From Eledone cirrhosa (Eukaryota), in the NCBI GenBank assembly GCA_964016885.1, contig OZ024742.1, positions 13,020,001 to 13,084,000 on the forward strand: DNA of 64,000 bases. Direction: 5' to 3'. The notes below the pieces were generated by a model. That model was not told the origin of the DNA and searched no databases. It was given only the letters and a program-made list of their open reading frames with translations. The position numbers and the translations under genes are program-made. This document shows, piece by piece, positions 24,185-64,000 of the stretch (within the stretch, counting starts at the first letter, position 1; each line of letters starts with the position of its first letter).

Positions 24185-24209
24185 AGACAGCACCTAAGAA
24201 AATATCAAC

Positions 24210-33837: not shown

Positions 33838-34255
33838 GTAGGAGGTGAGTTTTATTGTAGTACAATAAAGCAATGCAGATATCGGATAAGAAGCACTCTA
33901 CAGTTTGTAGGACTGGAGTATACATAATATATAAGAACAAAAGATGGTTAAAAGGGTTCCATGTATTTTATATGCGCATTTCAAAAACAAATATCATCAT
34001 GCAATAATATTTGTGTTTTCATTAGATAAAAGAGGAAGACATGATATGAAGGTTAAAAAACACTTTTGGATAGTGCAGTTTTATATATGTTGATTTAAAA
34101 CTGCACTATCCACAAGTGTTTTTTAACCTTCATATCATGTCTTCCTGTTTTATCTGATGAAAACACAAATATTATTACATGATGATATTTGTTTTTGAAA
34201 TGCGCATATAAAATACATGGAACCCTTTTAACCATCTTTTGTTCTTATATATTAT
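33838..34255 (-). mobile_element. PLE fold-back (family J, copy 2); HHR at 34148-34213 (+), mutated CTAATGA copy on minus
   Basis: Homologous to 19841-20285 in the opposite orientation. Confidence 0.8.
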
Positions 34256-34789
34256 ATATATATATATATATACATGTCTATATGTATATATATGTGTGTG
34301 TGTGTGTTTGTAAGTGTTTATAAATCAAGCATACATAAATACATATACACGTACATATATATATATATACATACATGCATACATTTATACATAGATACAC
34401 ACGTACATACATACATATACATACATACATACATACATACATACATACATACATACATACATACATACATACATACATACATACATACATACACACTCAT
34501 ACATACATACATACACACTCATACATACATACATACATAACATTTAGTCATTGTGGCATTTCCTCATTGTTCAGAATATGTTACCAAGAAACTTGTGTTG
34601 GTGATTTTAAATGATGTGGTCAAACGGTTCGATATTTGGGTCCCCACCGGGTTTTCTCTTGGAAACGCCGCCTATATATTTGTCTCATCTATGTTGCCCA
34701 TAAGGGGAAGCTTGTCCAATCTTTCAGAGATACCAGTGTTACTCTCGGTTGTGGTTCACTTTGGAACTGCAGTGGTGTGGGCGATGATG

Positions 34790-35085
34790 TGGCCATCACT
34801 AAATTCTAGAGTCTGTCTCGAGGCATTGAGGTTTATTAGCTCGGCATTTATCCTGGTTTCTAAGGTGTTAAGTACAAGACTCCCCTTTGGACAGGACGCC
34901 AGTCCAACACAGGGTTAAACTCCCAGCTATTGTTGCTCGTACTAATTGACAGCTGATTATACTGGAGCAACGTGAAATTAAGTGTTTTACTCAAGAACAC
35001 AATACACAACCCAGTCCAAGAATTGAACCCATGGCGTTATGATCGTAAGTCCAACACCCTTACCACTAGGTCACACCACACCTCC
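34790..35085 (-). mobile_element. tRNA-derived SINE (CORE/Nin-domain-like body), source of the adjacent satellite
   Basis: actggagcaacgtgaaattaagtgttttactcaagaacacaa and ggacaggacgccagtc..cagggtt body (family resemblance from memory), continuous with a tRNA-like head matching the array unit. Confidence 0.8.
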
Positions 35086-38000
35086 ACAACACAACCTAAC
35101 CCAGGAATCAAACCCACGACATTATGATCGTAAGTCCAACACCCTTACCACTAGGCCACACCACCACAACACACAACCCAGGAATCAAACCCACGACATT
35201 ATGATCGTAAGTCCAACACCTTTACCACTAGGCCATACCACACCCCCACAACCCAACCTAACCCAGGAATCAAACCCACGACATTATGATCGTAAGTCCA
35301 ACACCCTTACCACTAGACCGCACCACACCTCAGCAACACAACACAACCCAGGAATCAAACCCACGATATTATGATCGTAAGTCCAACACCCTTACCACTA
35401 GGCCCCACCACACCTCCACAACACACAACCTAGGAATCAAACCCACGATATTATGATCGTAAGTCGAACACCCTTACCACTAGGCCCCACCACACCTCCA
35501 CAACACAACACAACACAGGAATCAAACCCACGATATTATGATCGTAAGTCCAACACCCGTACCTCTAGGTCACACCACACCTCCACAACACACAACCCAG
35601 GAATCAAACCCACGACATTATGATTGTAAGTCGAACACCCTTACCTCTAGGTCACACCACACCTCCACACAACACACAACCCAGGAATCAAACACACGAT
35701 ATTATGATCGTAATTCGAACACCCTTACCTCTAGGTCACACCACACCTCCACACAACACACAACCCAGCAATCAAACCCACGACATTATGATCGTAAGTC
35801 CAACACCCTTACCTCTAGGTCACACCACACCTCCACAACACACAACCCAGGAATCAAACCCACGACATTATGATCGTAAGTCCAACACCCTTACCTCTAG
35901 GTCACACCACACCTCCACACAACACACAACCCAGGAATCAAACCCACGACATTATGATCGTAAGTCGAACACCCTTACCTCTAGGTCACACCACACCTCC
36001 ACACAACACACAACCCAGGAATCAAACACACGATATTTGATCGTAAGTCGAACACCCTTACCACTAGGCCATACCACACCTCCACAACACAACACAACCC
36101 AGGAATCAAACCCACGATATTATGATTGTAAGTCCAACACCCTTACCACTAGGCCCCACCACACCTCCACAACACAACACAACCCAGGAATCAAACCCAC
36201 GATATTATGATCGTAAGTCCAACACCCTTACCACTAGGCCCCACCATACCTCCACAACAGACAACCCAGGAATCAAACCCACGATATTATGATCGTAAGT
36301 CCAACACCCTTACCACAAGGCCCCACCACACCTCCACAACACAACACAACCCAGGAATCAAACCCACGATATTATGATAGTAAGACGAACACCCTTACCA
36401 CTAGGCCCCACCACACCTCCACAACACACAATCCAGGAATCAAACCCACGATATTATGATCGTAAGTCGAACACCCTTACCACTAGGTCACACCACACCT
36501 CCACAACACACAACCCAGGAATCAAACCCACGATATTATGATCGTAAGTCGAACACCCTTACCACAAGGCCAGACCACACCTCCACAACCCAACCTAACC
36601 CATGAATCAAACCCACGATATTATTATCGTAAGTCCAACACCCTTACCACTAGGCCCCACCACACCTCCACAACACAATACAACCCAGGAATCAAACCCA
36701 CGATATTATGATCGTTAGTCGAACACCCTTACCATTAGGCCATACCACACCACCACAAGCCAACCTAACCCAGGAATCAAACCCACGATATTATGATCGT
36801 AAGTCGACCACCCTTACCACTAGGCCATACCACACCACCACAACCCAAACTAACCCAGGAATCAAACCCACGATATTATGATCGTAAGTCGAACACCCTT
36901 ACCACTAGTCCCCACCACACCTCCATAACAGACAACCCAGGAATCAAACCCACGATATTGTGATCGTAAGTCCAACACCCTTACCACTAGGCCCCACCAT
37001 ACCTCCATAACAGACAACCCAGGAATCAAATCGACGATATTATGATCTTAAGTCGAACACCCTTACCACTAGGCCCCACCACACCTCAACAACAGACAAC
37101 CCAGGAATCAAACCCACGATAATATGATCGTAAGTCCAACACCCTTACCACTAGGCCATACCACACCTCCACAACCCAACCTAACCCAGGAATCAAACTC
37201 ACGATATTATGATCGTAAGTCCAACACCCTTACCACTAGGCCCCACCACACCTCCACAACACACAACCCAGGAATCAAACCCACGATATTATGATCGTAA
37301 GACCAACACCCTTACCACTAGGCCCCACCGCACCTCCACAACACACAACCCAGGAATCAAACCCACGATATTATGATCGTAAGTCCAACTCCCTTACCAC
37401 TAGGCCACACCACACCTCCACAACACACAACCCAGGAATCAAACCCACGATATTATGATCGTAAGACCAACACCCTTACCACTAGGCCCCACCGCACCTC
37501 CACAACACACAACCCAGGAATCAAACCCACGATATTATGATCGTAAGTCCAACTCCCTTACCACTAGGCCACACCACACCTCCACAACACACAACCCAGG
37601 AATCAAACCCACGATATTATGATCGTAAGACCAACACCCTTACCACTAGGCCCCACCGCACCTCCACAACACACAACCCAGGAATCAAACCCACGATATT
37701 ATGATCGTAAGTCCAACTCCCTTACCACTAGGCCACACCACACCTCCACAACACACAACCCAGGAATCAAACCCACGATATTATGATCGTAAGTCCAACA
37801 CCCTTACCACTAGGCCATACCACACCTCCACAACCCAACCTAACCCAGGAATCAAACCCACGATATTATGATCGTAAGTCCAACACCCTTACAACTAGGC
37901 CCCACCACACCTCCACAACAGACAACCCAGGAATCAAACCCACGACATTATGATTGTAAGTCGAACAACCTTACCACTAGGTCACACCACACCTCCACAA

Positions 38001-41000
38001 CACACAACCCAGAAATCAAACCCACGACATTATGATCGTAAGTCGAACACCCTTAACACTAGGCCATACCACACCTCCACATCACACAACCCATGAATCA
38101 AACCCACGACATTATGATCGTAAGTCGAACACCCTTACCACTAGGCCACACCACACCTCCACAACACACAACCCAGGAATCAAACCCACGACATTATGAT
38201 CGTAAGTCGAACACCCTTACCACTAGGCCATACCACACCTCCACAACACACAACACAGGAATCGAACCCACGACATTATGATCGTAAGTCGAACACCCTT
38301 ACCACTAGGCCACACCACACCTCCACAACACACAACCCAGGAATCAAATCCACGATATTATGATCGTAAGTCTAACACCCTTACCACTAGGCCTCACAAC
38401 ACCTCCACAACACACAACCCAGGAATCAAATCCACGATATTATGATCGTAAGTCGAACACCCTTACCACTAGGCCATACCACACCTCCACAACACACAAC
38501 ACAGGAATCAAACCCACGATATTATGATCGTAAGTCGAACACCCTTACCACTAGGCCCCACCACACCTCCACAACACACAACCCAGGAATCAAACCCACG
38601 ATATTATGATCGTAAGTCGAACACCCTTACCACTAGGCCATACCACACCTCCACAACCCAACCTAACCCAGCAATCAAACCCACGATATTATGATCGTAA
38701 GTCTAACACCCTTACCACTAGGCCACACCACACCCCCACAACACACAACCCAGGAATCAAACCCACGACATTATGATCGTAAGTCGAACACCCTTACCAC
38801 TAGGCCATACCACACCTCCACAACACACAACCCAGGAATCAAACCCACGATATTATGATCGTAAGTCGAACACCCTTACCACTAGTCCCCACCACACCTC
38901 CACAACACACAACCCAGGAATCAAACCCACGAATTTATGATCGTAAGTCCAACACCCTTACCACTAGGCCACCCCACACCTCCACAACACACAACCCAGG
39001 AATCAAACCCACGATATTATGATCGTAAGTCGAACACCCTTACCACTAGTCCCCACCACACCTCCACAACACACAACCCAGGAATCAAACCCACGAATTT
39101 ATGATCGTAAGTCCAACACCCTTACCACTAGGCCACACCACACCTCCACAACACACAACCCAGGAATCAAACCCACGACATTACGATCGTAAGTCGAACA
39201 CCCTTACCACTAGGCCATACCACATCTCCACAACACACAACCCAGGAATCAAACCCACGATATTATGATCGTAAGTCCAACACCCTTACCACTAGGCCCC
39301 ACCACACCTCCACAACACAACACAACCCAGGAATCAAACCCACGATATTATGATCGTAAGTCCAACACCCTTACCACTAGGTCACACCACACCTCCACAA
39401 CACACAACCCAGGAATCAAACCCACGATATTATGATCGTAAGTCCAACACCCTTACCACTAGGTCACACCACACCTCCACAACACACAACACAGGAATCA
39501 AACCCACGATATTATGATCGTAAGTCCAACACCCTTACCACTAGGTCACACCGCACCTCCACAACACAACACAACCCAGGAATCAAACCCACGATATTAT
39601 GATCGTAAGACCAACACCCTTACCACTAGGCCCCACCACACCTCCACAACACACAATCCAGGAATCAAACCCACGACATTATGATCGTAAGTCCAATACC
39701 CTTACCACTAGGCCCCACCAAACCTCAACAACAGACAACCCAGGAATCAAACCCACGATAATATGATCGTAAGTCCAACACCCTTACCACTAGGCCATAC
39801 CACACCTCCACAACCCAACCTAACCCAGGAATCAAACTCACGATATTATGATCGTAAGTCCAATACCCTTACCACTAGGCCCCACCACACCTCCACGATA
39901 TTATGATCTTAAGTCCAACACCCTTACCACTAGGCCATACCACACCTCCACAACACACAACCCAAGAATCAAACCCACGATATTATGATCGTAAGACCAA
40001 CACCCTTACCACTAGGCCCCACCGCACCTCCACAACACACAACCCAGGAATCAAACCCACGATATTATGATCGTAAGTCCAACTCCCTTACCACTAGGCC
40101 ACACCACACCTCCACAACAGACAACCCAGCAATCAAACCCACGATATTATGATCGTAAGTCCAACTCCCTTACCACTAGGCCACACCACACCTCCACAAC
40201 ACACAACCCAGAAATCAAACCCACGACATTATGATCGTAAGTCGAACACCCTTAACACTAGGCCATACCACACCTCCACATCACACAACCCATGAATCAA
40301 ACCCACGACATTATGATCGTAAGTCGAACACCCTTACCACTAGGCCACACCACACCTCCACAACACATAACCCAGGAATCAAACCCACGACATTATGATC
40401 GTAAGTCGAACACCCTTACCACTAGGCCATACCACACCTCCACAACACACAACACAGGAATCAAACCCACGACATTATGATCGTAAGTCGAACACCCTTA
40501 CCACTAGGCCACACCACACCTCCACAACACACAACCCAGGAATCAAACCCACGACATTATGATCGTAAGTCGAACACCCTTACCACTAGGCCACACCACA
40601 CCTCCACAACACAACACAATCCAGGAATCAAACCCACGATATTATGATCGTAAGTCCAACACCCTTACCACTAGGCCACACCACACCTCCACAACACAAC
40701 ACAACCCAGGAATCAAACCCACGATATTATGATCGTAAGTCCAACACCCTTAACACTACGCCATACCACACCTCCACATCACACAACCCACGAATCAAAC
40801 CCACGACATTATGATCGTAAGTCGAACACCCTTACCACTAGGCCACACCACACCTCCACAACACACAACCCAGGAATCAAACCCACGACATTATGATCGT
40901 AAGTCGAACACCCTTACCACTAGGCCATACCACACCTCCACAACACACAACCCAGGAATCAAACCCACGATATTATGATCGTAAGTCCAACTCCCTTACC

Positions 41001-44000
41001 ACTAGGTCATACCACACCTCCACAACCCAACCTAACCCAGGAATCAAACCCACGATATTATGATCGTAAGTCCAACACCCTTACCACTAGGCCCCACCAC
41101 ACCTCCACAACACACAATCCAGGAATGAAACCCACAATATTATGATCGTAAGTCCAACACCCTTACAACTAGGCCCCACCACACCTCCACAACAGACAAC
41201 CCATGAATCAAACCCACGACATTATGATCGTAATTCCAATACCCTTACCACTAGGCCCCACCACACCTCAACAACACACAATCCAGGAATCAAACCCACG
41301 ATATTATGATCGTAAGTCCAACACCCTTACCACTAGGCCACACCACACCTCCACAACACACAACCCAGGAATCAAACCCACGATATTATGATCGTAAGTC
41401 CAACTCCCTTACCACTAGGTCACACCACACCTCCACAACACAGAACACAGGAATCAAACCCACGATATTATGATCGTAAGTCCAACACCCTTACCACTAG
41501 GTCACACCACACCTCCACGATATTATGATCTTAAGTCCAACACCCTTACCACTAGGTCATACCACACCTCCACAACACACAACCCAGGAATCAAACCCAC
41601 GATATTATGATCGTAAGACCAACACCCTTACCACTAGGCCCCAGCGCACCTCCACAACACACAACCCAGGAATCAAACCCACGATATTATGATCGTAAGT
41701 CCAACTCCCTTACCACTAGGCCACACCACACCTACCCCACAACACACAACCCAGGAATCAAACCCACGATATTATGATCGTAAGTCCAACTCTCTTACCA
41801 CTAGGTCACACCACACCTCCACAACACAACACAACCCAGGAATCAAACCCACGATATTATGATCGTAAGTCCAACACCCTTACCACTAGGCCATACCACA
41901 CCTCTACAACCCAACCTAACCCAGGAATCAAACCCACGATATTATGATCGTAAGTCCAACACCCTTACCACTAGGCCCCACCACACCTCCACAACACACA
42001 ATCCAGGAATGAAACCCACAATATTATGATCGTAAGTCCAACACCCTTACAACTAGGCCCCACCACACCTCCACAACAGACAACCCAGGAATCAAACCCA
42101 CGACATTATGATTGTAAGTCGAACAACCTTACCACTAGGTCACACCACACCTCCACAACACACAACCCAGAAATCAAACCCACGACATTATGATCGTAAG
42201 TCGAACACCCTTAACACTAGGCCATACCACACATCCACATCACACAACCCATGAATCAAACCCACGACATTATGATCGTAAGTCGAACACACTTACCACT
42301 AGGCCACACCACACCTCCACAACACACAACCCAGGAATCAAACCCACGACATTATGATCGTAAGTCGAACACCCTTACCACTAGGCCATACCACACCTCC
42401 ACAACACACAACACAGGAATCAAACCCACGACATTATGATCGTAAGTCGAACACCCTTACCACTAGGCCACACCACACCTCCACAACACACAACCCAGGA
42501 ATCAAATCCACGATATTATGATCGTAAGTCTAACACCCTTACCACTAGGCCTCACAACACCTCCACAACACACAACCCAGGAATCAAACCCACGATATTA
42601 TGATCGTAAGTCGAACACCCTTACCACTAGGCCATACCACACCTCCACAACACACAACACAGGAATCAAACCCACGATATTATGATCGTAAGTCCAACAC
42701 CCTTACCACTAGGCCCCACCACACCTCCACAACACACAACCCAGGAATCAAACCCACGATATTATGATCGTAAGTCGAACACCCTTACCACTAGGCCATA
42801 CCACACCTCCACAACCCAAACTAACCCAGCAATCAAACCCACGATATTATGATCGTAAGTCTAACACCCTTACCACTCGGCCACACCACACCCCCACAAC
42901 ACACAACCCAGGAATCAAACCCACGACATTATGATCGTAAGTCGAACACCCTTACCACTAGGCCATACCACACCTCCACAACACACAACCCAGGAATCAA
43001 ACCCACGAATTTATGATCGTAAGTCCAACACCCTTACCACTAGGCCACACCACACCTCCACAACACACAACCCAGGAATCAAACCCACGACATTACGATC
43101 GTAAGTCGAACACCCTTACCACTAGGCCATACCACATCTCCACAACACACAACCCAGGAATCAAACCCACGATATTATGATCGTAAGTCCAACACCCTTA
43201 CCACTAGGCCCCACCACACCTCCACAACACAACACAACCCAGGAATCAAACCCACGATATTATGATCGTAAGTCCAACACCCTTACCACTAGGTCACACC
43301 ACACCTCCACAACACACAACCCAGGAATCAAACCCACGATATTATGATCGTAAGTCCAACACCCTTACCACTAGGTCACACCGCACCTCCACAACACAAC
43401 ACAACCCAGGAATCAAACCCACGATATTATGATCGTAAGACCAACACCCTTACCACTAGGCCCCACCACACCTCCACAACACACAATCCAGGAATCAAAC
43501 CCACGACATTATGATCGTAAGTCCAATACCCTTACCACTAGGCCCCACCAAACCTCAACAACAGACAACCCAGGAATTAAACCCACGATAATATGATCGT
43601 AAGTCCAACACCCTTACCACTAGGCCATACCACACCTCCACAACCCAACCTAACCCAGGAATCAAACTCACGATATTATGATCGTAAGTCCAATACCCTT
43701 ACCACTAGGCCCCACCACACCTCCACGATATTATGATCTTAAGTCCAACACCCTTACCACTAGGCCATACCACACCTCCACAACACACAACCCAAGAATC
43801 AAACCCACGATATTATGATCGTAAGACCAACACCCTTACCACTAGGCCCCACCGCACCTCCACAACACACAACCCAGGAATCAAACCCACGATATTATGA
43901 TCGTAAGTCCAACTCCCTTACCACTAGGCCACACCACACCTCCACAACAGACAACCCAGGAATCAAACCCACGACATTATGATTGTAAATCGAACAACCT

Positions 44001-47000
44001 TACCACTAGGTCACACCACACCTCCACAACACACAACCCAGAAATCAAACCCACGACATTATGATCGTAAGTCGAACACCCTTAACACTAGGCCATACCA
44101 CACCTCCACATCACACAACCCATGAATCAAACCCACGACATTATGATCGTAAGTCGAACACCCTTACCACTAGGCCACACCACACCTCCACAACACATAA
44201 CCCAGGAATCAAACCCACGACATTATGATCGTAAGTCGAACACCCTTACCACTGGGCCATACCACACCTCCACAACACACAACACAGGAATCAAACCCAC
44301 GACATTATGATCGTAAGTCGAACACCCTTACCACTAGGCCACACCACACCTCCACAACACACAACCCAGGAATCAAACCCACGACATTATGATCGTAAGT
44401 CGAACACCCTTACCACTAGGCCACACCACACCTCCACAACACAACACAATCCAGGAATCAAACCCACGATATTATGATCGTAAGTCCAACACCCTTACCA
44501 CTAGGCCACACCACACCTCCACAACACAACACAACCCAGGAATCAAACCCACGATATTATGATCGTAAGTCCAACACCCTTAACACTACGCCATACCACA
44601 CCTCCACATCACACAACCCACGAATCAAACCCACGACATTATGATCGTAAGTCGAACACCCTTACCACTAGGCCACACCACACCTCCACAACACACAACC
44701 CAGGAATCAAACCCACGACATTATGATCGTAAGTCGAACACCCTTACCACTAGGCCATACCACACCTCCACAACACACAACCCAGGAATCAAACCCACGA
44801 TATTATGATCGTAAGTCCAACTCCCTTACCACTAGGTCATACCACACCTCCACAACCCAACCTAACCCAGGAATCAAACCCACGATATTATGATCGTAAG
44901 TCCAACACCCTTACCACTAGGCCCCACCACACCTCCACAACACACAATCCAGGAATGAAACCCACAATATTATGATCGTAAGTCCAACACCCTTACAACT
45001 AGGCCCCACCACACCTCCACAACAGACAACCCATGAATCAAACCCACGACATTATGATCGTAATTCCAATACCCTTACCACTAGGCCCCACCACACCTCA
45101 ACAACACACAATCCAGGAATCAAACCCACGATATTATGATCGTAAGTCCAACACCCTTACCACTAGGCCACACCACACCTCCACAACACACAACCCAGGA
45201 ATCAAACCCACGATATTATGATCGTAAGTCCAACTCCCTTACCACTAGGTCACACCACACCTCCACAACACAGAACACAGGAATCAAACCCACGATATTA
45301 TGATCGTAAGTCCAACACCCTTACCACTAGGTCACACCACACCTCCACAACCCAACCTAACCCAGGAATCAAACTCACGATATTATGATCGTAAGTCCAA
45401 CACCCTTACCACTAGGCCCCACCACACCTCCACGATATTATGATCTTAAGTCCAACACCCTTACCACTAGGCCATACCACACCTCCACAACACACAACCC
45501 AGGAATCAAACCCACGATATTATGATCGTAAGACCAACACCCTTACCACTAGGCCCCACCGCACCTCCACAACACACAACCCAGGAATCAAACCCACGAT
45601 ATTATGATCGTAAGTCCAACTCCCTTACCACTAGGCCACACCACACCTCCACAACACACAACCCAGGAATCAAACCCACGATATTATGATCGTAAGTCCA
45701 ACTCCCTTACCACTAGGTCACACCACACCTCCACAACACAACACAACCCAGGAATCAAACCCACGATATTATGATCGTAAGTCCAACACCCTTACCACTA
45801 GGCCATACCACACCTCTACAACCCAACCTAACCCAGGAATCAAACCCACGATATTATGATCGTAAGTCCAACACCCTTACCACTAGGCCCCACCACACCT
45901 CCACAACACACAATCCAGGAATGAAACCCACAATATTATGATCGTAAGTCCAACACCCTTACAACTAGGCCCCACCACACCTCCACAACAGACAACCCAG
46001 GAATCAAACCCACGACATTATGATTGTAAGTCGAACAACCTTACCACTAGGTCACACCACACCTCCACAACACACAACCCAGAAATCAAACCCACGACAT
46101 TATGATCGTAAGTCGAACACCCTTAACACTAGGCCATACCACACCTCCACATCACACAACCCATGAATCAAACCCACGACATTATGATCGTAAGTCGAAC
46201 ACCCTTACCACTAGGCCACACCACACCTCCACAACACACAACCCAGGAATCAAACCCACGACATTATGATCGTAAGTCGAACACCCTTACCACTAGGCCA
46301 TACCACACCTCCACAACACACAACCCAGGAATCAAACCCACGATATTATGATCGTAAGTCGAACACCCTTACCACTAGTCCCCACCACACCTCCACAACA
46401 CACAACCCAGGAATCAAACCCACGAATTTATGATCGTAAGTCCAACACCCTTACCACTAGGCCACACCACACCTCCACAACACACAACCCAGGAATCAAA
46501 CCCACGACATTACGATCGTAAGTCGAACACCCTTACCACTAGGCCATACCACATCTCCACAACACACAACCCAGGAATCAAACCCACGATATTATGATCG
46601 TAAGTCCAACACCCTTACCACTAGGCCCCACCACACCTCCACAACACAACACAACCCAGGAATCAAACCCACGATATTATGATCGTAAGTCCAACACCCT
46701 TACCACTAGGTCACACCACACCTCCACAACACACAACCCAGGAATCAAACCCACGATATTATGATCGTAAGTCCAACACCCTTACCACTAGGTCACACCG
46801 CACCTCCACAACACAACACAACCCAGGAATCAAACCCACGATATTATGATCGTAAGACCAACACCCTTACCACTAGGCCCCACCACACCTCCACAACACA
46901 CAATCCAGGAATCAAACCCACGACATTATGATCGTAAGTCCAATACCCTTACCACTAGGCCCCACCAAACCTCAACAACAGACAACCCAGGAATTAAACC

Positions 47001-50000: not shown

Positions 50001-53000
50001 CCTCCACGATATTATGATCTTAAGTCCAACACCCTTACCACTAGGCCATACCACACCTCCACAACACACAACCCAGGAATCAAACCCACGATATTATGAT
50101 CGTAAGACCAACACCCTTACCACTAGGCCCCACCGCACCTCCACAACACACAACCCAGGAATCAAACCCACGATATTATGATCGTAAGTCCAACTCCCTT
50201 ACCACTAGGCCACACCACACCTCCACAACACACAACCCAGGAATCAAACCCACGATATTATGATCGTAAGTCCAACTCCCTTACCACTAGGTCACACCAC
50301 ACCTCCACAACACAACACAACCCAGGAATCAAACCCACGATATTATGATCGTAAGTCCAACACCCTTACCACTAGGCCATACCACACCTCTACAACCCAA
50401 CCTAACCCAGGAATCAAACCCACGATATTATGATCGTAAGTCCAACACCCTTACCACTAGGCCCCACCACACCTCCACAACACACAATCCAGGAATGAAA
50501 CCCACAATATTATGATCGTAAGTCCAACACCCTTACAACTAGGCCCCACCACACCTCCACAACAGACAACCCAGGAATCAAACCCACGACATTATGATTG
50601 TAAGTCGAACAACCTTACCACTAGGTCACACCACACCTCCACAACACACAACCCAGAAATCAAACCCACGACATTATGATCGTAAGTCGAACACCCTTAA
50701 CACTAGGCCATACCACACCTCCACATCACACAACCCATGAATCAAACCCACGACATTATGATCGTAAGTCGAACACCCTTACCACTAGGCCACACCACAC
50801 CTCCACAACACACAACCCAGGAATCAAACCCACGACATTATGATCGTAAGTCGAACACCCTTACCACTAGGCCATACCACACCTCCACAACACACAACAC
50901 AGGAATCAAACCCACGACATTATGATCGTAAGTCGAACACCCTTACCACTAGGCCACACCACACCTCCACAACACACAACCCAGGAATCAAATCCACGAT
51001 ATTATGATCGTAAGTCTAACACCCTTACCACTAGGCCTCACAACACCTCCACAACACACAACCCAGGAATCAAACCCACGATATTATGATCGTAAGTCGA
51101 ACACCCTTACCACTAGGCCATACCACACCTCCACAACACACAACACAGGAATCAAACCCACGATATTATGATCGGAAGTCCAACACCCTTACCACTAGGC
51201 CCCACCACACCTCCACAACACACAACCCAGGAATCAAACCCACGATATTATGATCGTAAGTCGAACACCCTTACCACTAGGCCATACCACACCTCCACAA
51301 CCCAAACTAACCCAGCAATCAAGCCCACGATATTATGATCGTAAGTCTAACACCCTTACCACTAGGCCACACCACACCCCCACAACACACAACCCAGGAA
51401 TCAAACCCACGACATTATGATCGTAAGTCGAACAACCTTACCACTAGGCCATACCACACCTCCACAACACACAACCCAGGAATCAAACCCACGATATTAT
51501 GATCGTAAGTCGAACACCCTTACCACTAGTCCCCACCACACCTCCACAACACACAACCCAGGAATCAAACCCACGAATTTATGATCGTAAGTCCAACAAC
51601 CTTACCACTAGGCCACACCACACCTCCACAACACACAACCCAGGAATCAAACCCACGACATTACGATCGTAAGTCGAACACCCTTACCACTAGGCCATAC
51701 CACATCTCCACAACACACAACCCAGGAATCAAACCCACGATATTATGATCGTAAGTCCAACACCCTTACCACTAGGCCCCACCACACCTCCACAACACAA
51801 CACAACCCAGGAATCAAAACCACGATATTATGATCGTAAGTCCAACACCCTTACCACTAGGTCACACCACACCTCCACAACACACAACCCAGGAATCAAA
51901 CCCACGATATTATGATCGTAAGTCCAACACCCTTACCACTAGGTCACACCGCACCTCCACAACACAACACAACCCAGGAATCAAACCCACGATATTATGA
52001 TCGTAAGACCAACACCCTTACCACTAGGCCCCACCACACCTCCACAACACACAACACAGGAATCAAACCCACGACATTATGATCGTAAGTCGAACACCCT
52101 TACCACTAGGCCACACCACACCTCCACAACACAACACAATCCAGGAATCAAACCCACGATATTATGATCGTAAGTCCAACACCCTTACCACTAGGCCACA
52201 CCACACCTCCACAACACAACACAACCCAGGAATCAAACCCACGATATTATGATCGTAAGTCCAACACCCTTAACACTACGCCATACCACACCTCCACATC
52301 ACACAACCCACGAATCAAACCCACGACATTATGATCGTAAGTCGAACACCCTTACCACTAGGCCACACCACACCTCCACAACACACAACCCAGGAATCAA
52401 ACCCACGACATTATGATCGTAAGTCGAACACCCTTACCACTAGGCCATACCACACCTCTACAACACACAACCCAGGAATCAAACCCACGATATTATGATC
52501 GTAAGTCCAACACCCTTACCACTAGGCCACACCACACCTCCACAACACAACACAACCCAGGAATCAAACCCACGATATTATGATCGTAAGTCCAACACCC
52601 TTAACACTACGCCATACCACACCTCCACATCATACAACCCACGAATCAAACCCACGACATTATGATCGTAAGTTGAACACCCTTACCACTAGGCCACACC
52701 ACACCTCCACAACACACAACCCAGGAATCAAACCCACGACATTATGATCGTAAGTCGAACACCCTTACCACTAGGCCATACCACACCTCCACAACACACA
52801 ACCCAGGAATCAAACCCACGATATTATGATCGTAAGTCCAACTCCCTTACCACTAGGTCACACCACACCTCCACAACACAACACAAGCCAGGAATCAAAC
52901 CCACGATATTATGATCGTAAGTCCAACACCCTTACCACTAGGCCATACCACACCTCCACAACCCAACCTAACCCAGGAATAAAACCCACGATATTATGAT

Positions 53001-56000
53001 CGTAAGTCCAACACCCTTACCACTAGGCCCCACCACACCTCCACAACACACAATCCAGGAATGAAACCCACAATATTATGATCGTAAGTCCAACACCCTT
53101 ACAACTAGGCCCCACCACACCTCCACAACAGACAACCCAGGAATCAAACCCACGACATTATGATCGTAAGTCGAACACCCTTAACACTAGGCCATACCAC
53201 ACCTCCACATCACACAACCCATGAATCAAACCCACGACATTATGATCGTAAGTCGAACACCCTTACCACTAGGCCATACCACACCTCCACAATACACAAC
53301 ACAGGAATCAAACCCACGACATTATGATCGTAAGTCGAACACCCTTACCACTAGGCCACACCACACCTCCACAACACACAACCCAGGAATCAAATCCACG
53401 ATATTATGATCGTAAGTCTAACACCCTTACCACTAGGCCTCACAACACCTCCACAGCACACAACCCAGGAATCAAACCCACGATATTATGATCGTAAGTC
53501 GAACACCCTTACCACTAGGCCATACCACACCTCCACAACACACAACACAGGAATCAAACCCACGACATTATGATCGTAAGTCGAACACCCTTACCACTAG
53601 GCCACACCACACCTCCACAACACACAACACAGGAATCAAACCCACGATATTATGATCGTAAGTCCAACACCCTTACCACTAGGCCCCACCACACCTCCAC
53701 AACACACAACCCAGGAATCAAACCCACGATATTATGATCGTAAGTCGAACACCCTTACCACTAGGCCATACCACACCTCCACAACCCAACCTAACCCAGC
53801 AATCAAACCCACGATATTATGATCGTAAGTCTAACACCCTTACCACTAGGCCACACCACACCCCCACAGCACACAACCCAGGAATCAAACCCACGACATT
53901 ATGATCGTAAGTCGAACACCCTTACCACTAGGCCATACCACACCTCCACAACACACAACCCAGGAATCAAACCCACGAATTTATGATCGTAAGTCGAACA
54001 CCCTTACCACTAGTCCCCACCACACCTCCACAACACACAACCCAGGAATCAAACCCACGAATTTATGATCGTAAGTCCAACACCCTTACCACTAGGCCAC
54101 ACCACACCTCCACAACACACAACCCAGGAATCAAACCCACGACATTACGATCGTAAGTCGAACACCCACCCTTACCACTAGTCCCCACCACACCTCCCCA
54201 ACACACAACCCAGGAATCAAACCCACGATATTATGATCGTAAGTCCAACACCCTTACCACTAGGCCCCACCACACCTCCACAACACAACACAACCCAGGA
54301 ATCAAACCCACGATATTATGATCGTAAGTCCAACACCCTTACCACTAGGTCACACCACACCTCCACAACACACAACCCAGGAATCAAACCCACGATATTA
54401 TGATCGTAAGTCCAACACCCTTACCACTAGGTCACACCGCACCTCCACAACACAACACAACCCAGGAATCAAACCCACGATATTATGATCGTAAGTCCAA
54501 CACCCTTACCACTAGGTCACACCGCACCTCCACAACCCAACCTAACCCAGGAATCAAACTCACGATATTATGATCGTAAGTCCAATACCCTTACCACTAG
54601 GCCCCACCACACCTCCACGATATTATGATCGTAAGTAGAACACCCTTACCACTAGGCCATACCACACCTCCACAACACACAACCCAGGAATCAAACCCAC
54701 GATATTATGATCGTAAGTCCAACACCCTTACCACTAGGCCCCACCACACCTCCACAACACAACACAACCCAGGAATCAAAACCACGATATTATGATCGTA
54801 AGTCCAACACCCTTACCACTAGGTCACACCACACCTCCACAACACACAACCCAGGAATCAAACCCACGATATTATGATCGTAAGTCCAACACCCTTACCA
54901 CTAGGTCACACCGCACCTCCACAACACAACACAACCCAGGAATCAAACCCACGATATTATGATCGTAAGACCAACACCCTTACCACTAGGCCCCACCACA
55001 CCTCCACAACACACAACACAGGAATCAAACCCACGACATTATGATCGTAAGTCGAACACCCTTACCACTAGGCCACACCACACCTCCACAACACAACACA
55101 ATCCAGGAATCAAACCCACGATATTATGATCGTAAGTCCAACACCCTTACCACTAGGCCACACCACACCTCCACAACACAACACAACCCAGGAATCAAAC
55201 CCACGATATTATGATCGTAAGTCCAACACCCTTAACACTACGCCATACCACACCTCCACATCACACAACCCACGAATCAAACCCACGACATTATGATCGT
55301 AAGTCGAACACCCTTACCACTAGGCCACACCACACCTCCACAACACACAACCCAGGAATCAAACCCACGACATTATGATCGTAAGTCGAACACCCTTACC
55401 ACTAGGCCATACCACACCTCTACAACACACAACCCAGGAATCAAACCCACGATATTATGATCGTAAGTCCAACACCCTTACCACTAGGCCACACCACACC
55501 TCCACAACACAACACAACCCAGGAATCAAACCCACGATATTATGATCGTAAGTCCAACACCCTTAACACTACGCCATACCACACCTCCACATCATACAAC
55601 CCACGAATCAAACCCACGACATTATGATCGTAAGTTGAACACCCTTACCACTAGGCCACACCACACCTCCACAACACACAACCCAGGAATCAAACCCACG
55701 ACATTATGATCGTAAGTCGAACACCCTTACCACTAGGCCATACCACACCTCCACAACACACAACACAGGAATCAAACCCACGATATTATGATCGTAAGTC
55801 CAACTCCCTTATCACTAGGTCACACCACACCTCCACAACACAACACAAGCCAGGAATCAAACCCACGATATTATGATCGTAAGTCCAACACCCTTACCAC
55901 TAGGCCATACCACACCTCCACAACCCAACCTAACCCAGGAATAAAACCCACGATATTATGATCGTAAGTCCAACACCCTTACCACTAGGCCCCACCACAC

Positions 56001-59000
56001 CTCCACAACACACAATCCAGGAATGAAACCCACAATATTATGATCGTAAGTCCAACACCCTTACAACTAGGCCCCACCACACCTCCACAACAGACAACCC
56101 AGGAATCAAACCCACGACATTATGATCGTAAGTCGAACACCCTTAACACTAGGCCATACCACACCTCCACATCACACAACCCATGAATCAAACCCACGAC
56201 ATTATGATCGTAAGTCGAACACCCTTACCACTAGGCCATACCACACCTCCACAATACACAACACAGGAATCAAACCCACGACATTATGATCGTAAGTCGA
56301 ACACCCTTACCACTAGGCCACACCACACCTCCACAACACACAACCCAGGAATCAAATCCACGATATTATGATCGTAAGTCTAACACCCTTACCACTAGGC
56401 CTCACAACACCTCCACAGCACACAACCCAGGAATCAAACCCACGATATTATGATCGTAAGTCGAACACCCTTACCACTAGGCCATACCACACCTCCACAA
56501 CACACAACACAGGAATCAAACCCACGACATTATGATCGTAAGTCGAACACCCTTACCACTAGGCCACACCACACCTCCACAACACACAACACAGGAATCA
56601 AACCCACGATATTATGATCGTAAGTCCAACACCCTTACCACTAGGCCCCACCACACCTCCACAACACACAACCCAGGAATCAAACCCACGATATTATGAT
56701 CGTAAGTCGAACACCCTTACCACTAGGCCATACCACACCTCCACAACCCAACCTAACCCAGCAATCAAACCCACGATATTATGATCGTAAGTCTAACACC
56801 CTTACCACTAGGCCACACCACACCCCCACAGCACACAACCCAGGAATCAAACCCACGACATTATGATCGTAAGTCCAACACCCTTACCACTAGGCCACAC
56901 CACACCTCCACAACACACAACCCAGGAATCAAACCCACGAATTTATGATCGTAAGTCGAACACCCTTACCACTAGTCCCCACCACACCTCCACAACACAC
57001 AACCCAGGAATCAAACCCACGAATTTATGATCGTAAGTCCAACACCCTTACCACTAGGCCACACCACACCTCCACAACACACAACCCAGGAATCAAACCC
57101 ACGACATTACGATCGTAAGTCGAACACCCACCCTTACCACTAGTCCCCACCACACCTCCCCAACACACAACCCAGGAATCAAACCCACGATATTATGATC
57201 GTAAGTCCAACACCCTTACCACTAGGCCCCACCACACCTCCACAACACAACACAACCCAGGAATCAAACCCACGATATTATGATCGTAAGTCCAACACCC
57301 TTACCACTAGGTCACACCACACCTCCACAACACACAACCCAGGAATCAAACCCACGATATTATGATCGTAAGTCCAACACCCTTACCACTAGGTCACACC
57401 GCACCTCCACAACACAACACAACCCAGGAATCAAACCCACGATATTATGATCGTAAGTCCAACACCCTTACCACTAGGTCACACCGCACCTCCACAACCC
57501 AACCTAACCCAGGAATCAAACTCACGATATTATGATCGTAAGTCCAATACCCTTACCACTAGGCCCCACCACACCTCCACGATATTATGATCGTAAGTCG
57601 AACACCCTTACCACTAGGCCATACCACACCTCCACAACACACAACCCAGGAATCAAACCCACGATATTATGATCGTAAGTCCAACACCCTTACCACTAGG
57701 CCACACCACACCTCCACAACACAACACAATCCAGGAATCAAACCCACGATATTATGATCGTAAGTCCAACACCCTTACCACTAGGCCACACCACACCTCC
57801 ACAACACAACACAACCCAGGAATCAAACCCACGATATTATGATCGTAAGTCCAACACCCTTAACACTACGCCATACCACACCTCCACATCACACAACCCA
57901 CGAATCAAACCCACGACATTATGATCGTAAGTCGAACACCCTTACCACTAGGCCACACCACACCTCCACAACACACAACCCAGGAATCAAACCCACGACA
58001 TTATGATCGTAAGTCGAACACCCTTACCACTAGGCCATACCACACCTCCACAACACACAACCCAGGAATCAAACCCACGATATTATGATCGTAAGTCCAA
58101 CACCCTTACCACTAGGCCACACCACACCTCCACAACACAACACAACCCAGGAATCAAACCCACGATATTATGATCGTAAGTCCAACACCCTTAACACTAC
58201 GCCATACCACACCTCCACATCATACAACCCACGAATCAAACCCACGACATTATGATCGTAAGTTGAACACCCTTACCACTAGGCCACACCACACCTCCAC
58301 AACACACAACCCAGGAATCAAACCCACGACATTATGATCGTAAGTCGAACACCCTTACCACTAGGCCATACCACACCTCCACAACACACAACCCAGGAAT
58401 CAAACCCACGATATTATGATCGTAAGTCCAACTCCCTTACCACTAGGTCACACCACACCTCCACAACACAACACAAGCCAGGAATCAAACCCACGATATT
58501 ATGATCGTAAGTCCAACACCCTTACCACTAGGCCATACCACACCTCCACAACCCAACCTAACCCAGGAATCAAACCCACGATATTATGATCGTAAGTCCA
58601 ACACCCTTACCACTAGGCCCCACCACACCTCCACAACACACAATCCAGGAATGAAACCCACAATATTATGATCGTAAGTCCAACACCCTTACAACTAGGC
58701 CCCACCACACCTCCACAACAGACAACCCAGGAATCAAACCCACGACATTATGATCGTAAGTCGAACACCCTTAACACTAGGCCATACCACACCTCCACAT
58801 CACACAACCCATGAATCAAACCCACGACATTATGATCGTAAGTCGAACACCCTTACCACTAGGCCATACCACACCTCCACAATACACAACACAGGAATCA
58901 AACCCACGACATTATGATCGTAAGTCGAACACCCTTACCACTAGGCCACACCACACCTCCACAACACACAACCCAGGAATCAAATCCACGATATTATGAT

Positions 59001-62000
59001 CGTAAGTCTAACACCCTTACCACTAGGCCTCACAACACCTCCACAGCACACAACCCAGGAATCAAACCCACGATATTATGATCGTAAGTCGAACACCCTT
59101 ACCACTAGGCCATACCACACCTCCACAACACACAACACAGGAATCAAACCCACGACATTATGATCGTAAGTCGAACACCCTTACCACTAGGCCACACCAC
59201 ACCTCCACAACACACAACACAGGAATCAAACCCACGATATTATGATCGTAAGTCCAACACCCTTACCACTAGGCCCCACCACACCTCCACAACACACAAC
59301 CCATGAATCAAACCCACGACATTATGATCGTAAGTCGAACACCCTTACCACTAGGCCACACCACACCTCCACAACACACAACCCAGGAATCAAACCCACG
59401 ACATTATGATCGTAAGTCGAACACCCTTACCACTAGGCCATACCACACCTCCACAACACACAACACAGGAATCAAACCCACGACATTATGATCGTAAGTC
59501 GAACACCCTTACCACTAGGCCACACCACACCTCCACAACACACAACCCAGGAATCAAATCCACGATATTATGATCGTAAGTCTAACACCCTTACCACTAG
59601 GCCTCACAACACCTCCACAACACACAACCCAGGAATCAAACCCACGATATTATGATCGTAAGTCGAACACCCTTACCACTAGGCCATACCACACCTCCAC
59701 AACACACAACACAGGAATCAAACCCACGATATTATGATCGGAAGTCCAACACCCTTACCACTAGGCCCCACCACACCTCCACAACACACAACCCAGGAAT
59801 CAAACCCACGATATTATGATCGTAAGTCGAACACCCTTACCACTAGGCCATACCACACCTCCACAACCCAAACTAACCCAGCAATCAAACCCACGATATT
59901 ATGATCGTAAGTCTAACACCCTTACCACTAGGCCACACCACACCCCCACAACACACAACCCAGGAATCAAACCCACGACATTATGATCGTAAGTCGAACA
60001 ACCTTACCACTAGGCCATACCACACCTCCACAACACACAACCCAGGAATCAAACCCACGATATTATGATCGTAAGTCGAACACCCTTACCACTAGTCCCC
60101 ACCACACCTCCACAACACACAACCCAGGAATCAAACCCACGAATTTATGATCGTAAGTCCAACACCCTTACCACTAGGCCACACCACACCTCCACAACAC
60201 ACAACCCAGGAATCAAACCCACGACATTACGATCGTAAGTCGAACACCCTTACCACTAGGCCATACCACATCTCCACAACACACAACCCAGGAATCAAAC
60301 CCACGATATTATGATCGTAAGTCCAACACCCTTACCACTAGGCCCCACCACACCTCCACAACACAACACAACCCAGGAATCAAAACCACGATATTATGAT
60401 CGTAAGTCCAACACCCTTACCACTAGGTCACACCACACCTCCACAACACACAACCCAGGAATCAAACCCACGATATTATGATCGTAAGTCCAACACCCTT
60501 ACCACTAGGTCACACCGCACCTCCACAACACAACACAACCCAGGAATCAAACCCACGATATTATGATCGTAAGACCAACACCCTTACCACTAGGCCCCAC
60601 CACACCTCCACAACACACAACACAGGAATCAAACCCACGACATTATGATCGTAAGTCGAACACCCTTACCACTAGGCCACACCACACCTCCACAACACAA
60701 CACAATCCAGGAATCAAACCCACGATATTATGATCGTAAGTCCAACACCCTTACCACTAGGCCACACCACACCTCCACAACACAACACAACCCAGGAATC
60801 AAACCCACGATATTATGATCGTAAGTCCAACACCCTTAACACTACGCCATACCACACCTCCACATCACACAACCCACGAATCAAACCCACGACATTATGA
60901 TCGTAAGTCGAACACCCTTACCACTAGGCCACACCACACCTCCACAACACACAACCCAGGAATCAAACCCACGACATTATGATCGTAAGTCGAACACCCT
61001 TACCACTAGGCCATACCACACCTCCACAACACACAACCCAGGAATCAAACCCACGATATTATGATCGTAAGTCCAACTCCCTTACCACTAGGTCACACCA
61101 CACCTCCACAACACAACCCAGGAATCAAACCCACGATATTATGATCGTAAGTCCAACACCCTTACCACTAGGCCATACCACACCTCCACAACCCAACCTA
61201 ACCCAGGAATCAAACCCACGATATTATGATCGTAAGTCCAACACCCTTACCACTAGGCCCCACCACACCTCCACAACACACAATCCAGGAATGAAACCCA
61301 CAATATTATGATCGTAAGTCCAACACCCTTACAACTAGGCCCCACCACACCTCCACAACAGACAACCCAGGAATCAAACCCACGACATTAAGATCGTAAG
61401 TCGAACACCCTTAACACTAGGCCATACCACACCTCCACATCACACAACCCATGAATCAAACCCACGACATTATGATCGTAAGTCGAACACCCTTACCACT
61501 AGGCCACACCACACCTCCACAACACACAACCCAGGAATCAAACCCACGACATTATGATCGTAAGTCGAACACCCTTACCACTAGGCCATACCACACCTCC
61601 ACAACACACAACACAGGAATCAAACCCACGACATTATGATCGTAAGTCGAACACCCTTACCACTAGGCCACACCACACCTCCACAACACACAACCCAGGA
61701 ATCAAATCCACGATATTATGATCGTAAGTCTAACACCCTTACCACTAGGCCTCACAACACCTCCACAACACACAACCCAGGAATCAAACCCACGATATTA
61801 TGATCGTAAGTCGAACACCCTTACCACTAGGCCATACCACACCTCCACAACACACAACACAGGAATCAAACCCACGATATTATGATCGTAAGTCCAACAC
61901 CCTTACCACTAGGCCCCACCACACCTCCACAACACACAACCCAGGAATCAAACCCACGATATTATGATCGTAAGTCGAACACCCTTACCACTAGGCCATA

Positions 62001-64000
62001 CCACACCTCCACAACCCAGCCTAACCCAGCAATCAAACCCACGATATTATGATCGTAAGTCTAACACCCTTACCACTAGGTCACACCACACCCCCACAAC
62101 ACACAACCCAGGAATCAAACCCACGACATTATGATCGTAAGTCGAACACCCTTACCACTAGGCCATACCACACCTCCACAACACACAACCCAGGAATCAA
62201 ACCCACGATATTATGATCGTAAGTCGAACACCCTTACCACTAGGCCATACCACACCTCCACAACACACAACACAGGAATCAAACCCACGACATTATGATC
62301 GTAAGTCGAACACCCTTACCACTAGGCCACACCACACCTCCACAACACACAACCCAGGAATCAAATCCACGATATTATGATCGTAAGTCTAACACCCTTA
62401 CCACTAGGCCTCACAACACCTCCACAACACACAACCCAGGAATCAAACCCACGATATTATGATCGTAAGTCGAACACCCTTACCACTAGGCCATACCACA
62501 CCTCCACAACACACAACACAGGAATCAAACCCACGATATTATGATCGTAAGTCCAACACCCTTACCACTAGGCCCCACCACACCTCCACAACACACAACC
62601 CAGGAATCAAACCCACGATATTATGATCGTAAGTCGAACACCCTTACCACTAGGCCATACCACACCTCCACAACCCAACCTAACCCAGCAATCAAACCCA
62701 CGATATTATGATCGTAAGTCTAACACCCTTACCACTAGGCCACACCACACCCCCACAACACACAACCCAGGAATCAAACCCACGACATTATGATCGTAAG
62801 TCGAACACCCTTACCACTAGGCCATACCACACCTCCACAACCCAACCTAACCCAGGAATCAAACCCACGATATTATGATCGTAAGTCTAACACCCTTACC
62901 ACTAGGCCACACCGCACCACCACAACACACAACCCAGCAATCAAACCCACGATATTATGATCGTAAGTCCAACACCCTTACCACTAGGTCACACCGCACC
63001 TCCACAACACACAATCCAGGAATCAAACCCACGACATTATGATCGTAAGTCCAACACCCTTACCACTAGGTCACACGACACCTCCACAACACACAACCCA
63101 GGAATCAAACCCACGATATTATGATCGTAAGTCCAACACCCTTACCACTAGGCCATACCACACCTCCACATCACACAACCCAGGAATCAAACCCACGATA
63201 TTATGATCGTAAGTCCAACTCCCTTACCACTAGGCCACACCGCACCTCCACAACACAACACAACCCAGGAATCAAACCCACGATATTATGATCGTAAGAC
63301 CAACACCATTACCACTAGGCCACACCGCACCTCCACAACACAACACAACCCAGGAATCAAACCCACGATATTATGATCGTAAGTCCAACACCCTTACCAC
63401 TAGGTCACACCGCACCTCCACAACACACAACCAGGGAATCAAACCCACGATATTATGATCGTAAGACCAACACCCTTACCACTAGGCCACACCACACCTC
63501 CACAACACACAATCCAGGAATCAAACCCACGACATTATGATCGTAAGTCCAATACCCTTACCACTAGGCCCCACCACACCTCAACAACAGACAACCCAGG
63601 AATCAAACCCACGATAATATGATCGTAAGTCCTACACCCTTACCACTAGGCCATACCACACCTCCACAACCCAACCTAACCCAGGAATCAAACTCACGAT
63701 ATTATGATCGTAAGTCCAATACCCTTACCACTAGGCCCCACCACACCTCCACGATATTATGATCTTAAGTCCAACACCCTTACCACTAGGTCAAAACCAC
63801 ACCTCCACAACACACAACCCAGGAATCAAACCCACGATATTATGATCGTAAGACCAACACCCTTACCACTAGGCCCCACCGCACCACCACAACACACAAC
63901 CCAGGAATCAAACCCACGATATTATGATCGTAAGTCCAACTCCCTTACCACTAGGCCATACCACACCTCCACAACCCAACCTAACCCAGGAATCAAACCC
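35030..64000 (-). repeat. Tandem satellite of SINE tRNA-like heads, 82/87-bp unit, ~350 copies, runs off window
   Basis: Minus unit tgttgtggaggtgtggtgTGGCCTAGTGGtaagggtgttggacttacgatcataatatcgtgGGTTTGATTCCtgggttgtg, with A box and B-box-like motif; ORF starts 35538 and 35620 are 82 apart. Confidence 0.97.

Follow-up and report, generated by a model that had tools for sequence, protein, structure and literature searches.

A 925-head SINE-derived satellite in Eledone cirrhosa with units probably exchanged into older SINE copies

Introduction

SINE-derived satellites (sSat) have been described in squamates, where, in the sections of the report dealing with them (Vassetzky 2023, PMC10702118), a locus can hold up to about 950–1,200 units and a terminal SINE, and unequal recombination together with concerted evolution is proposed. 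In the relevant sections on Drosophila Rsp-like repeats, a rare microhomology junction is followed by spread into clusters of the 1.688 repeat (Sproul et al. 2020, PMC7403614). A literature search, with most subscription papers outside its scope, returned no report of SINE-head satellites in cephalopods.

The window analysed here, a whole stretch of 64,000 nt from Eledone cirrhosa (contig OZ024742.1, positions 13,020,001 to 13,084,000), contains part of an array of 925 SINE heads. The array is an sSat: its units are homologous to a SINE dispersed in the same genome, 925 heads of 82–85 bp follow each other head to tail where an sSat has at least four monomers shorter than the SINE, the terminal unit is longer, the units are homogeneous and the location is distal. 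We consider it probable that this satellite is transcriptionally inert, that homologous DNA exchange brought its unit into an older SINE copy or fused it to one, and that it was then expanded in place.

Results

Extent and internal order of the array

TRF analysis of the window yielded an 82-bp period with 349.6 copies between positions 35037 and 63752, and 353 heads were counted. The tandem heads (35088..64000, minus strand; 82-, 85- and 55-bp units with a mostly intact A box and a C56T B box) continue to the window end and past it. The original prediction had described a satellite of SINE heads of at least 29 kb, still joined to a SINE body; this architecture was borne out, and the size holds for the window, with a real extent of 75.8 kb and 925 heads. 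The whole array lies on the minus strand, contains 0 N and ends at G000:C3:13,130,926, where an A box is interrupted midway, marking the array start at that end. Units measured 82 bp (n=676), 85 bp (n=195), 55 bp (n=19) or other lengths (n=33). Their mean divergence from the array consensus was 3.9%, with 286 distinct units among 924. Local best periods within the array ranged from 8 to 56 units, showing block duplications of these sizes with shifting periods; at period 56, 32 consecutive units were identical.

Among the 353 window heads, the minus strand carried TGGCCTAGTGG in 165, GCCTAGTGGTAAGGG in 237, CTTACGA in 327, the B box GGTTTGATTCC in 252 and TTGTGGAGG in 274. The minus-strand motifs of the original prediction were recovered. 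A four-GG (G-quadruplex-type) motif was present in 249 of the 353 window units.

The distance from the array to the chromosome end corresponded to 3.4% of chromosome length (measured to the end of the assembled chromosome, the telomere itself not being located). In the left flank of the array no host gene was seen, the long ORFs there being transposon remnants or simple repeats, and a search for a target-site duplication, including a comparison with the far flank, found none. Exact junction matches fell almost entirely within the one 76-kb locus (345 of 352), and this distribution speaks against a centromeric repeat present genome-wide in the assembly.

Long runs of identical units could suggest that the array length was inflated, or its structure created, during assembly. 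We regard such an artefact as barely credible, since the array contains 0 N, shows periods of many lengths and includes 286 distinct units, and contigs spanning the junction reached a depth of 240–390, compared with about 12 for unique flank (public runs from one sample, perhaps the source sample). In run X7, one 112-nt contig crossed the 82-type junction at a depth of 3, and run X5 gave low-depth pieces, both too weak to speak to conservation.

The source SINE family

The array derives from a dispersed tRNA-derived SINE of about 280 bp, for which 2,481 copies, each recognised by two exact anchors, were collected. The family shows dispersed copies, a head with A and B boxes, a simple-repeat tail and target-site duplications. 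Boundary repeats of at least 8 bp were detected at 6 of 22 SINE monomers, and 7 of 30 monomers scored as 5'-truncated. As predicted, the array unit aligns to the dispersed SINE head, its consensus differing from the family head consensus at 3 of 70 positions; randomly chosen monomer heads differed from each other by 13% on average (435 pairs). Folding z-scores below -2 were obtained for 19 of 30 monomer heads and 14 of 30 array units, with a mean z of -3.2 for the C19 units and overlap between the groups. In octopus OR2, the head is tRNA-Arg-like and a CORE-like domain comes after it. The source family may resemble this octopus CORE-SINE, whose name is used here as a lead only. OR2 is named as a CORE element in the part of the literature concerned (PMC5804259).

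The terminal head and the joined SINE copy

The last head continues into a SINE body, and the whole element (35087-34806, minus strand) reaches its tail. The type of this terminal head switches at about nt 50, where a long-subfamily sequence that is more decayed replaces the array type. Its 5' part (35037..35087, minus strand) is of the array type and departs from the array consensus at 2 sites in 50 nt, each of them variable within the array. Its 3' part (34999..35036, minus strand) shows 7 differences from that consensus over 18 nt, retains 5 nt missing from the 82-bp units and carries the B box GGTTCAATTCT; this long-subfamily resident type would represent the resident side of a crossover. 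The body and tail (34806..34998, minus strand) belong to an old copy that is 15% diverged from the family consensus.

The adjoining SINE had been taken as the literal parent of the satellite, with TTGTG as the site at which its own head was duplicated before expanding on the spot. This reading accounts for the direct continuity of head and body, other loci give clear signs of local duplication (L064, L132 and L062, where heads carry common private mutations or take in flank), and homogenisation does not reach edge units. It is nevertheless very unlikely and already largely contradicted. The decay of the adjacent copy is absent from the units: non-CpG differences from the family consensus amount to 2/64 in the unit consensus and 26/173 in the joined body (Fisher p=0.011; part of the body divergence is a subfamily difference). 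Because the units are thus much nearer to the family consensus than the adjacent body, this SINE is unsupported as their parent. Moreover, the units are of the short type and the terminal head of the long type, and the units match those at L061 and L041. The proposed unit boundary within TTGTG was retained in part: the demonstrable common boundary is GTG, with which the SINE itself begins, whereas the TT before it relies on flank sequence missing from this locus, and TTGTG occurs at the 5' end of only 3 of 30 monomers.

Other head arrays in the genome

The genome-wide search proposed with the original prediction revealed dozens of head arrays, so that the 925-head array is no one-off. Among the 2,481 anchored heads, 40 matches at at least 35 loci were in tandem, as against 3 of 3,058 for a matched body-pattern control placed at a single anchor position (head versus body OR 14.6, p=1e-9). 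Within this SINE family, the head is duplicated far more often than the body. The arrays, each within a SINE copy, range from 2 to about 925 units, with unit lengths of 33–131 bp; the 33–48-bp units include A-box-only forms, which also expand. A second giant array extends over about 73 kb.

Families defined by their junction form clusters that occupy both strands (C2 396-408 Mb, C12 39.8-40.0, C23 14.3-15.1 and C3 12.9-18.3). Of the 17 loci among the matches listed for the three largest chromosomes, 16 (5 of 6 clusters) lay no more than 6% from an end, a count that covers grouped loci, as the distal loci are clustered. The 82-type junction was found on five chromosomes, also occurring on C4, C5, C19 and C25. 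Of the 11 arrays whose 5' ends are full, 5 were flanked by boundary repeats of at least 8 bp, compared with 1 of 110 mismatched pairs.

Units and bodies compared between loci

Near-identical units with the same junction were found in different SINE insertions 0.3–5 Mb apart whose bodies are divergent. The best three of 23 pairs were the 925-head array and L061, located 5.2 Mb away (units 1/82, bodies 25/145 differences, or 17%; p=1e-4), L236 and L238 (units 1/71, bodies 19/145; p=0.005), and L153 and L154 (units 1/91, bodies 13/144; p=0.011). Two of the 12 L061 units were found letter for letter in the 925-head array, whose units also match L041. The flanks of the compared unit-sharing loci were unrelated except for short dispersed repeats, and several of these arrays have retained target-site duplications of their own. 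At the flank-compared loci, the unrelated flanks ruled out segmental duplication as the origin of the common units. For most pairs of the 71-bp family, the unit consensus differs by 8–16%, about as much as the body, so that recent transfer is shown for some pairs only. Transfer into a monomer and conversion between pre-existing arrays cannot be separated in these data. In a tree of the bodies, from which four loci were left out, 2 of 61 branches were supported.

Taken with the terminal head, these comparisons suggest DNA exchange into nearby older SINEs as the likely route by which the repeat spreads, and not outgrowth from the adjoining SINE. As an alternative, multi-head SINE RNAs, started by Pol III at an upstream head and read through to the tail, might have been retrotransposed and have seeded arrays that expanded locally. 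Such a SINE-to-satellite-to-SINE cycle would be compatible with exchange. It fits the spread of the 82-type junction over five chromosomes, including C4, C5, C19 and C25, and the 7-bp repeat that lies right at the truncated first head and after the tail of L206 (C19; 35 units with canonical B boxes). The consensus unit lacks a T4 terminator (TTTT occurs 26 times over all 925 units), and the first heads of the 925-head array, L061, L062, L190 and L206 are 5'-truncated at different points, with junctions that contain the SINE start. We nonetheless consider this route unlikely as the main one: retrotransposition does not predict families clustered within a few Mb, unit-sharing loci have bodies 9–17% apart, several arrays have full, locus-specific 5' ends, 5'-truncation was also scored in 7 of 30 monomers, and a single 7-bp repeat is weak, repeats of at least 7 bp being found in 3 of 110 null pairs.

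tRNA and Pol III promoter status

That the units are not tRNA genes, as originally proposed, was upheld. ARAGORN reported 0 tRNAs in the part of the array within the 64-kb window, and Rfam tRNA matches scored 15–19 bits, below the gathering score of 29 bits, and spanned model positions 6–9 to 63–65 only, the acceptor stem being missing. On these grounds an array of tRNA genes was ruled out.

The consensus B box is GGTTTGATTCC, corresponding to C56T, and the canonical form GGTTCRANNCC was present in 2 of 925 units only: one at 38258..38268 on the minus strand (GGTTCGATTCC), the other outside the window. Yeast TFIIIC makes a base-specific contact with the C:G pair at position 56, in the part of the report concerned (PMC11724288), and the argument from C56 is drawn from the yeast factor. 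With this key promoter base mutated in nearly every copy, the array is, judging from its sequence, likely to be transcriptionally inert and promoter-dead.

The original prediction had also envisaged a platform for TFIIIC and Pol III, acting as an insulator, centromere-like domain or source of small RNA. A-box-like motifs (467 matches in 925 units) at tRNA-like box spacing and the 173 tandem heads genome-wide that retain a canonical B box, including the C19 array, would agree with such a role. The proposal is weakened, however, by the C56T consensus and the scarcity of canonical B boxes, and it is further opposed by the free variation of unit length and content among arrays, by the expansion of A-box-only forms among the 33–48-bp units and by the B box of the second giant array, which is likewise non-canonical. 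From the motifs present, a functional platform maintained by selection appears highly improbable.

Discussion

The favoured explanation, exchange of the unit followed by expansion in place, may be broken down into four steps. Head duplication would be seeded by short homologies, namely GTG at the 5' end and the TG-rich tract after the B box, or CCAGT/CTAGT for the 94–104-bp units. A resident SINE might then repair a break on a nearby array and acquire the repeat (by gene conversion/SDSA or circle reintegration); at the present locus, a recombination event fusing an array to the downstream old copy would fit equally well. Local expansion could follow by unequal exchange, favoured in distal regions, and C56T would leave little TFIIIC binding or Pol III output. 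In a more speculative extension, which we hold to be possible but doubtful, the SINE family gives rise to a homing satellite and also provides its landing pads. Head arrays would copy themselves through homologous repair into old SINE copies nearby, and arrays retaining a B box, such as that on C19, would also be transcribed along their length and retrotransposed to other chromosomes as multi-head RNAs. If this were true, SINE, satellite and SINE would form a self-sustaining cycle, with the Pol III promoter region as its hotspot.

The useful part of these observations is the genome-wide series of arrays, in which the SINE body and target-site duplication of each array give it an independent age and identity. 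Satellite birth and jumps to new loci, usually masked by homogenisation, are thereby directly testable in this genome. Annotators should bear in mind that a SINE joined to a satellite may not be its parent and that such arrays may inflate counts of tRNA-like sequences and Pol III promoters.

Comparison with known systems

The amphibian repeats OAX/satellite 1, PolIII/TAN, Rana/polIII and Hy/polIII are also tandem and carry tRNA-like Pol III boxes; as summarised in the sections of PMC10702118 concerned, no matching dispersed SINE is reported for them and some are transcribed, whereas the source SINE is explicit here and the B box mutated. Bivalve HCD-SINEs, as treated in the pertinent parts of PMC11481361, offer a mollusc parallel of tRNA-SINE tandems, some of them arranged as TSD-(SINE)n-TSD and closed by a complete element, but their arrays comprise 2–15 units of long SINE parts, compared with 925 head-only units here.

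Rsp-like repeats resemble the present arrays in that they spread along the chromosome, through interlocus gene conversion or eccDNA, to loci where a homologous repeat is already present, and in that distant loci have junction types in common (sections of PMC7403614). They differ in that the landing pads in Eledone cirrhosa are single dispersed retroposon copies and that the satellite comes from the very element it invades.

The closest counterpart is the squamate sSat, of which the 925-head array represents the described class in a new and different animal lineage. The two have in common tandem units made of part of a tRNA-derived SINE (70–290 nt in sSat), a terminal unit that is longer and extends as far as the SINE end, head-derived variants, distal sites and few long but many short loci (sections of PMC10702118). 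Relative to squamate sSat, the bias towards head units is put at about 14-fold here, and there is evidence for movement of units between separate old SINE insertions; the passages of the sSat paper concerned (PMC10702118) do not show units being transferred into resident copies that have target-site duplications of their own.

Extent and structure of the array

The window is part of the 378.9-Mb contig C3 of the 3.0-Gb genome. The 82-bp tandem array, originally predicted to comprise about 350 minus-strand SINE heads and to run to the window end, was recovered with TRF (349.6 copies, 35037-63752) and by anchor counting (353 heads), and the motifs named for its units were found on the minus strand in 165, 237, 327, 252 and 274 of the 353 heads, respectively. 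With ten neighbouring stretches included, the full array comprised 925 heads in 75.8 kb with zero N, its far end opening mid-A box. Among 924 units, 286 were distinct; a run of 32 identical units recurred at period 56, local periods ranged from 8 to 56, and internal blocks were duplicated. Contigs spanning the array junction reached a depth of 240-390, whereas the unique flank stood at ~12 in a run made from the same sample; the public runs behind these figures may be the assembly's own source. The array is real and exceeds the reported size.

In 249 of the 353 units, the 3-nt insertion of the 82-bp family generated a four-GG motif within unit positions 2-16, which might form a two-tier G-quadruplex; the strand is 74% G+T. 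Elsewhere in the window, a near-perfect palindrome of 342 bp (33919-34260; arms of 168 nt, 96%; very high depth in public runs) is likely a MITE or foldback family. An LTR-retrotransposon-like pol remnant (24198-27076, plus strand) contained protease, RT and RNase H (Pfam) and, by eye, an integrase-like ORF, and RT fragments of other elements lay at 28145-28702 (plus strand) and 30001-30969 (minus strand). An ORF at 13022-14335, possibly Penelope-like, had zero Pfam matches.

Source SINE and terminal element

As predicted, the last head ran on into a SINE of ~280 bp (35087-34806, minus strand), with a GTGGAGG start, A box, B box, body and short repeat tail. Matching to two exact anchors yielded 2,481 genomic copies of this family. 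Of 30 sampled single copies, 16 had a long and 14 a short head (lacking 5 nt) and 18 a B box with GGTTCRA; flanking direct repeats of at least 8 bp were present in 6 of 22 scorable copies. The head may be tRNA-Arg-like and followed by a CORE-like domain, for which OR2 may be compared. OR2 is an octopus CORE element, according to an excerpt of PMC5804259. Whole SINE copies also occurred at ~1.4-kb spacing within a larger tandem unit (L018/L019, G000:C6:63.866 Mb).

The adjoining SINE had been regarded as the parent, a reading that was not upheld. Between the array consensus and the family head, 2 of 64 non-CpG sites differed, whereas the joined body differed from the family at 26 of 173 (p=0.011), a divergence partly accounted for by a subfamily difference. 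The units were also shared by L061, a 16-head locus 5.2 Mb off: its unit consensus was 1/82 from that of the 925-head array and 2 of 12 of its units were found there letter for letter, but the bodies differed at 25 of 145 positions and the flanks were unrelated. Compared with the array consensus, the terminal head carried 2 mismatches over its first 50 nt but 7 over the following 18, and was of the long type, the 82-bp units being of the short type. Because of this mismatch jump, the split in head type and the sharing of units with L061 despite unlike bodies, the terminal element is best read, on sequence comparison, as a probable chimera, part array head and part older resident copy. A 5-head array lay 120 kb from the 925-head array on the opposite strand.

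Pol III-related features

In agreement with the original prediction, the units are not tRNA genes: ARAGORN returned 0 tRNA, and Rfam tRNA matches scored below the gathering score and did not include acceptor positions. The case for the suggested TFIIIC/Pol III platform was weakened. The most frequent B box was GGTTTGATTCC (676 of 871 full-length units), the canonical GGTTCRANNCC occurred twice in the entire array, and the prevailing change was C56T, a CpG transition; A-box-like motifs persisted (467 matches). In yeast, the part of PMC11724288 concerned with TFIIIC reports base-specific contact to the corresponding C:G pair on both strands, which by analogy may extend to the E. cirrhosa array. 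A functional platform is unlikely for the 925 heads. Better candidates for activity are the 173 tandem heads elsewhere whose B box stayed canonical; they belong to smaller arrays, among them the 35-unit locus L206 (82-bp units, G000:C19:26070115-26073100).

Head arrays across the genome

Exact matches to the array's junction lay almost entirely within it (345 of 352), yet head arrays were generally common: 125 of the 1,460 adjacent-head matches genome-wide fell in the 925-head array. A terminal head with a second head 72-102 bp upstream was matched 40 times, the matches falling at 35 loci, whereas the matched body pattern gave 3 of 3,058 (OR 14.6, with a single body anchor as control). Unit lengths ranged from 33 to 131 bp. 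A second giant array (~73 kb of 91-bp units with a SINE body at its end; L191, L210-L215 and L231) occupied, to judge by probes, about 23.3-96.0 kb of the unplaced contig C1660 (23286-96021); its unit consensus was identical to that of a 75-unit array at C1:1.74 Mb, the ends being unlike. Other large arrays had ~170 (C2, C26), 80 (C12) and 75 units (C1). Minisatellites of the A-box region only (33-39 bp, up to ~170 units) had likewise expanded upstream of SINE bodies (L131, L141, L142, L147, L197, L198). Recurrent 94-104-bp duplications (L150, L156, L159, L200-L205 on C21, C24, C26 and C3, several on C24) were joined through homology of body CCAGT with A box CTAGT.

Junction families were grouped locally on both strands: 71-bp at C2 396-408 Mb, 74-bp at C12 39.8-40.0 Mb, 91-bp at C23 14.3-15.1 Mb and 82-bp at C3 12.9-18.3 Mb. 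The C2 group (L235-L241) comprised six 71-bp arrays (4-169 units), found on either strand and each inside a SINE insertion of its own; two had clear target-site duplications. Of 11 arrays whose 5' end was complete, 5 had the SINE bracketed by boundary repeats of 8-10 bp (null 1/110); those arrays therefore lie inside ordinary, separate insertions. In 3 of 23 compared pairs, unit consensuses were at most one base apart and bodies 9-17% apart; one further pair was equally close in unit consensus, its body not being scorable, and in most others the units had diverged too. On C1-C3, 16 of 17 non-independent loci (5 of 6 clusters) among the matches listed lay within 6% of an end.

Mechanism of spread

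Heads were preferentially duplicated, and units were common to unrelated SINE copies. It is reasonably probable that arrays would be seeded at short homologies, that units would pass between array and resident SINE by homologous repair (or, at the 925-head locus, that the array would have fused to a downstream copy), that growth would proceed by unequal exchange and that the array would have no function. Retrotransposition of a multi-head RNA, the main rival, is compatible with this explanation but rather unlikely; the 82-type junction also on C4, C5, C19 and C25, the truncated first heads and the 7-bp repeat flanking such a head at L206 point towards it, whereas the local grouping of families and the unrelated bodies argue against it. 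Both Pol III activity and retrotransposition of a multi-head element have their best candidate in L206, whose body is young (6% diverged). At some small loci, clonal duplication has indeed taken place locally, but it fits the 925-head locus poorly. Spread by seeding, transfer and exchange is a variant that is supported but not proven.

Comparison with known systems

The literature searched, of incomplete coverage, yielded no cephalopod SINE-head satellite; tandem SINEs of bivalves reach 15 units in the portion of PMC11481361 available. As far as the accessible text of PMC7403614 goes, the spread of heads resembles Rsp-like moving into 1.688 clusters. SINE-derived satellites (sSats), as defined in the available sections of Vassetzky et al. 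2023 (PMC10702118), have up to ~950-1,200 units, head-derived variants and a distal location; the 925-head array has exactly this layout and all four sSat characters, and extends an already known class to a new lineage.
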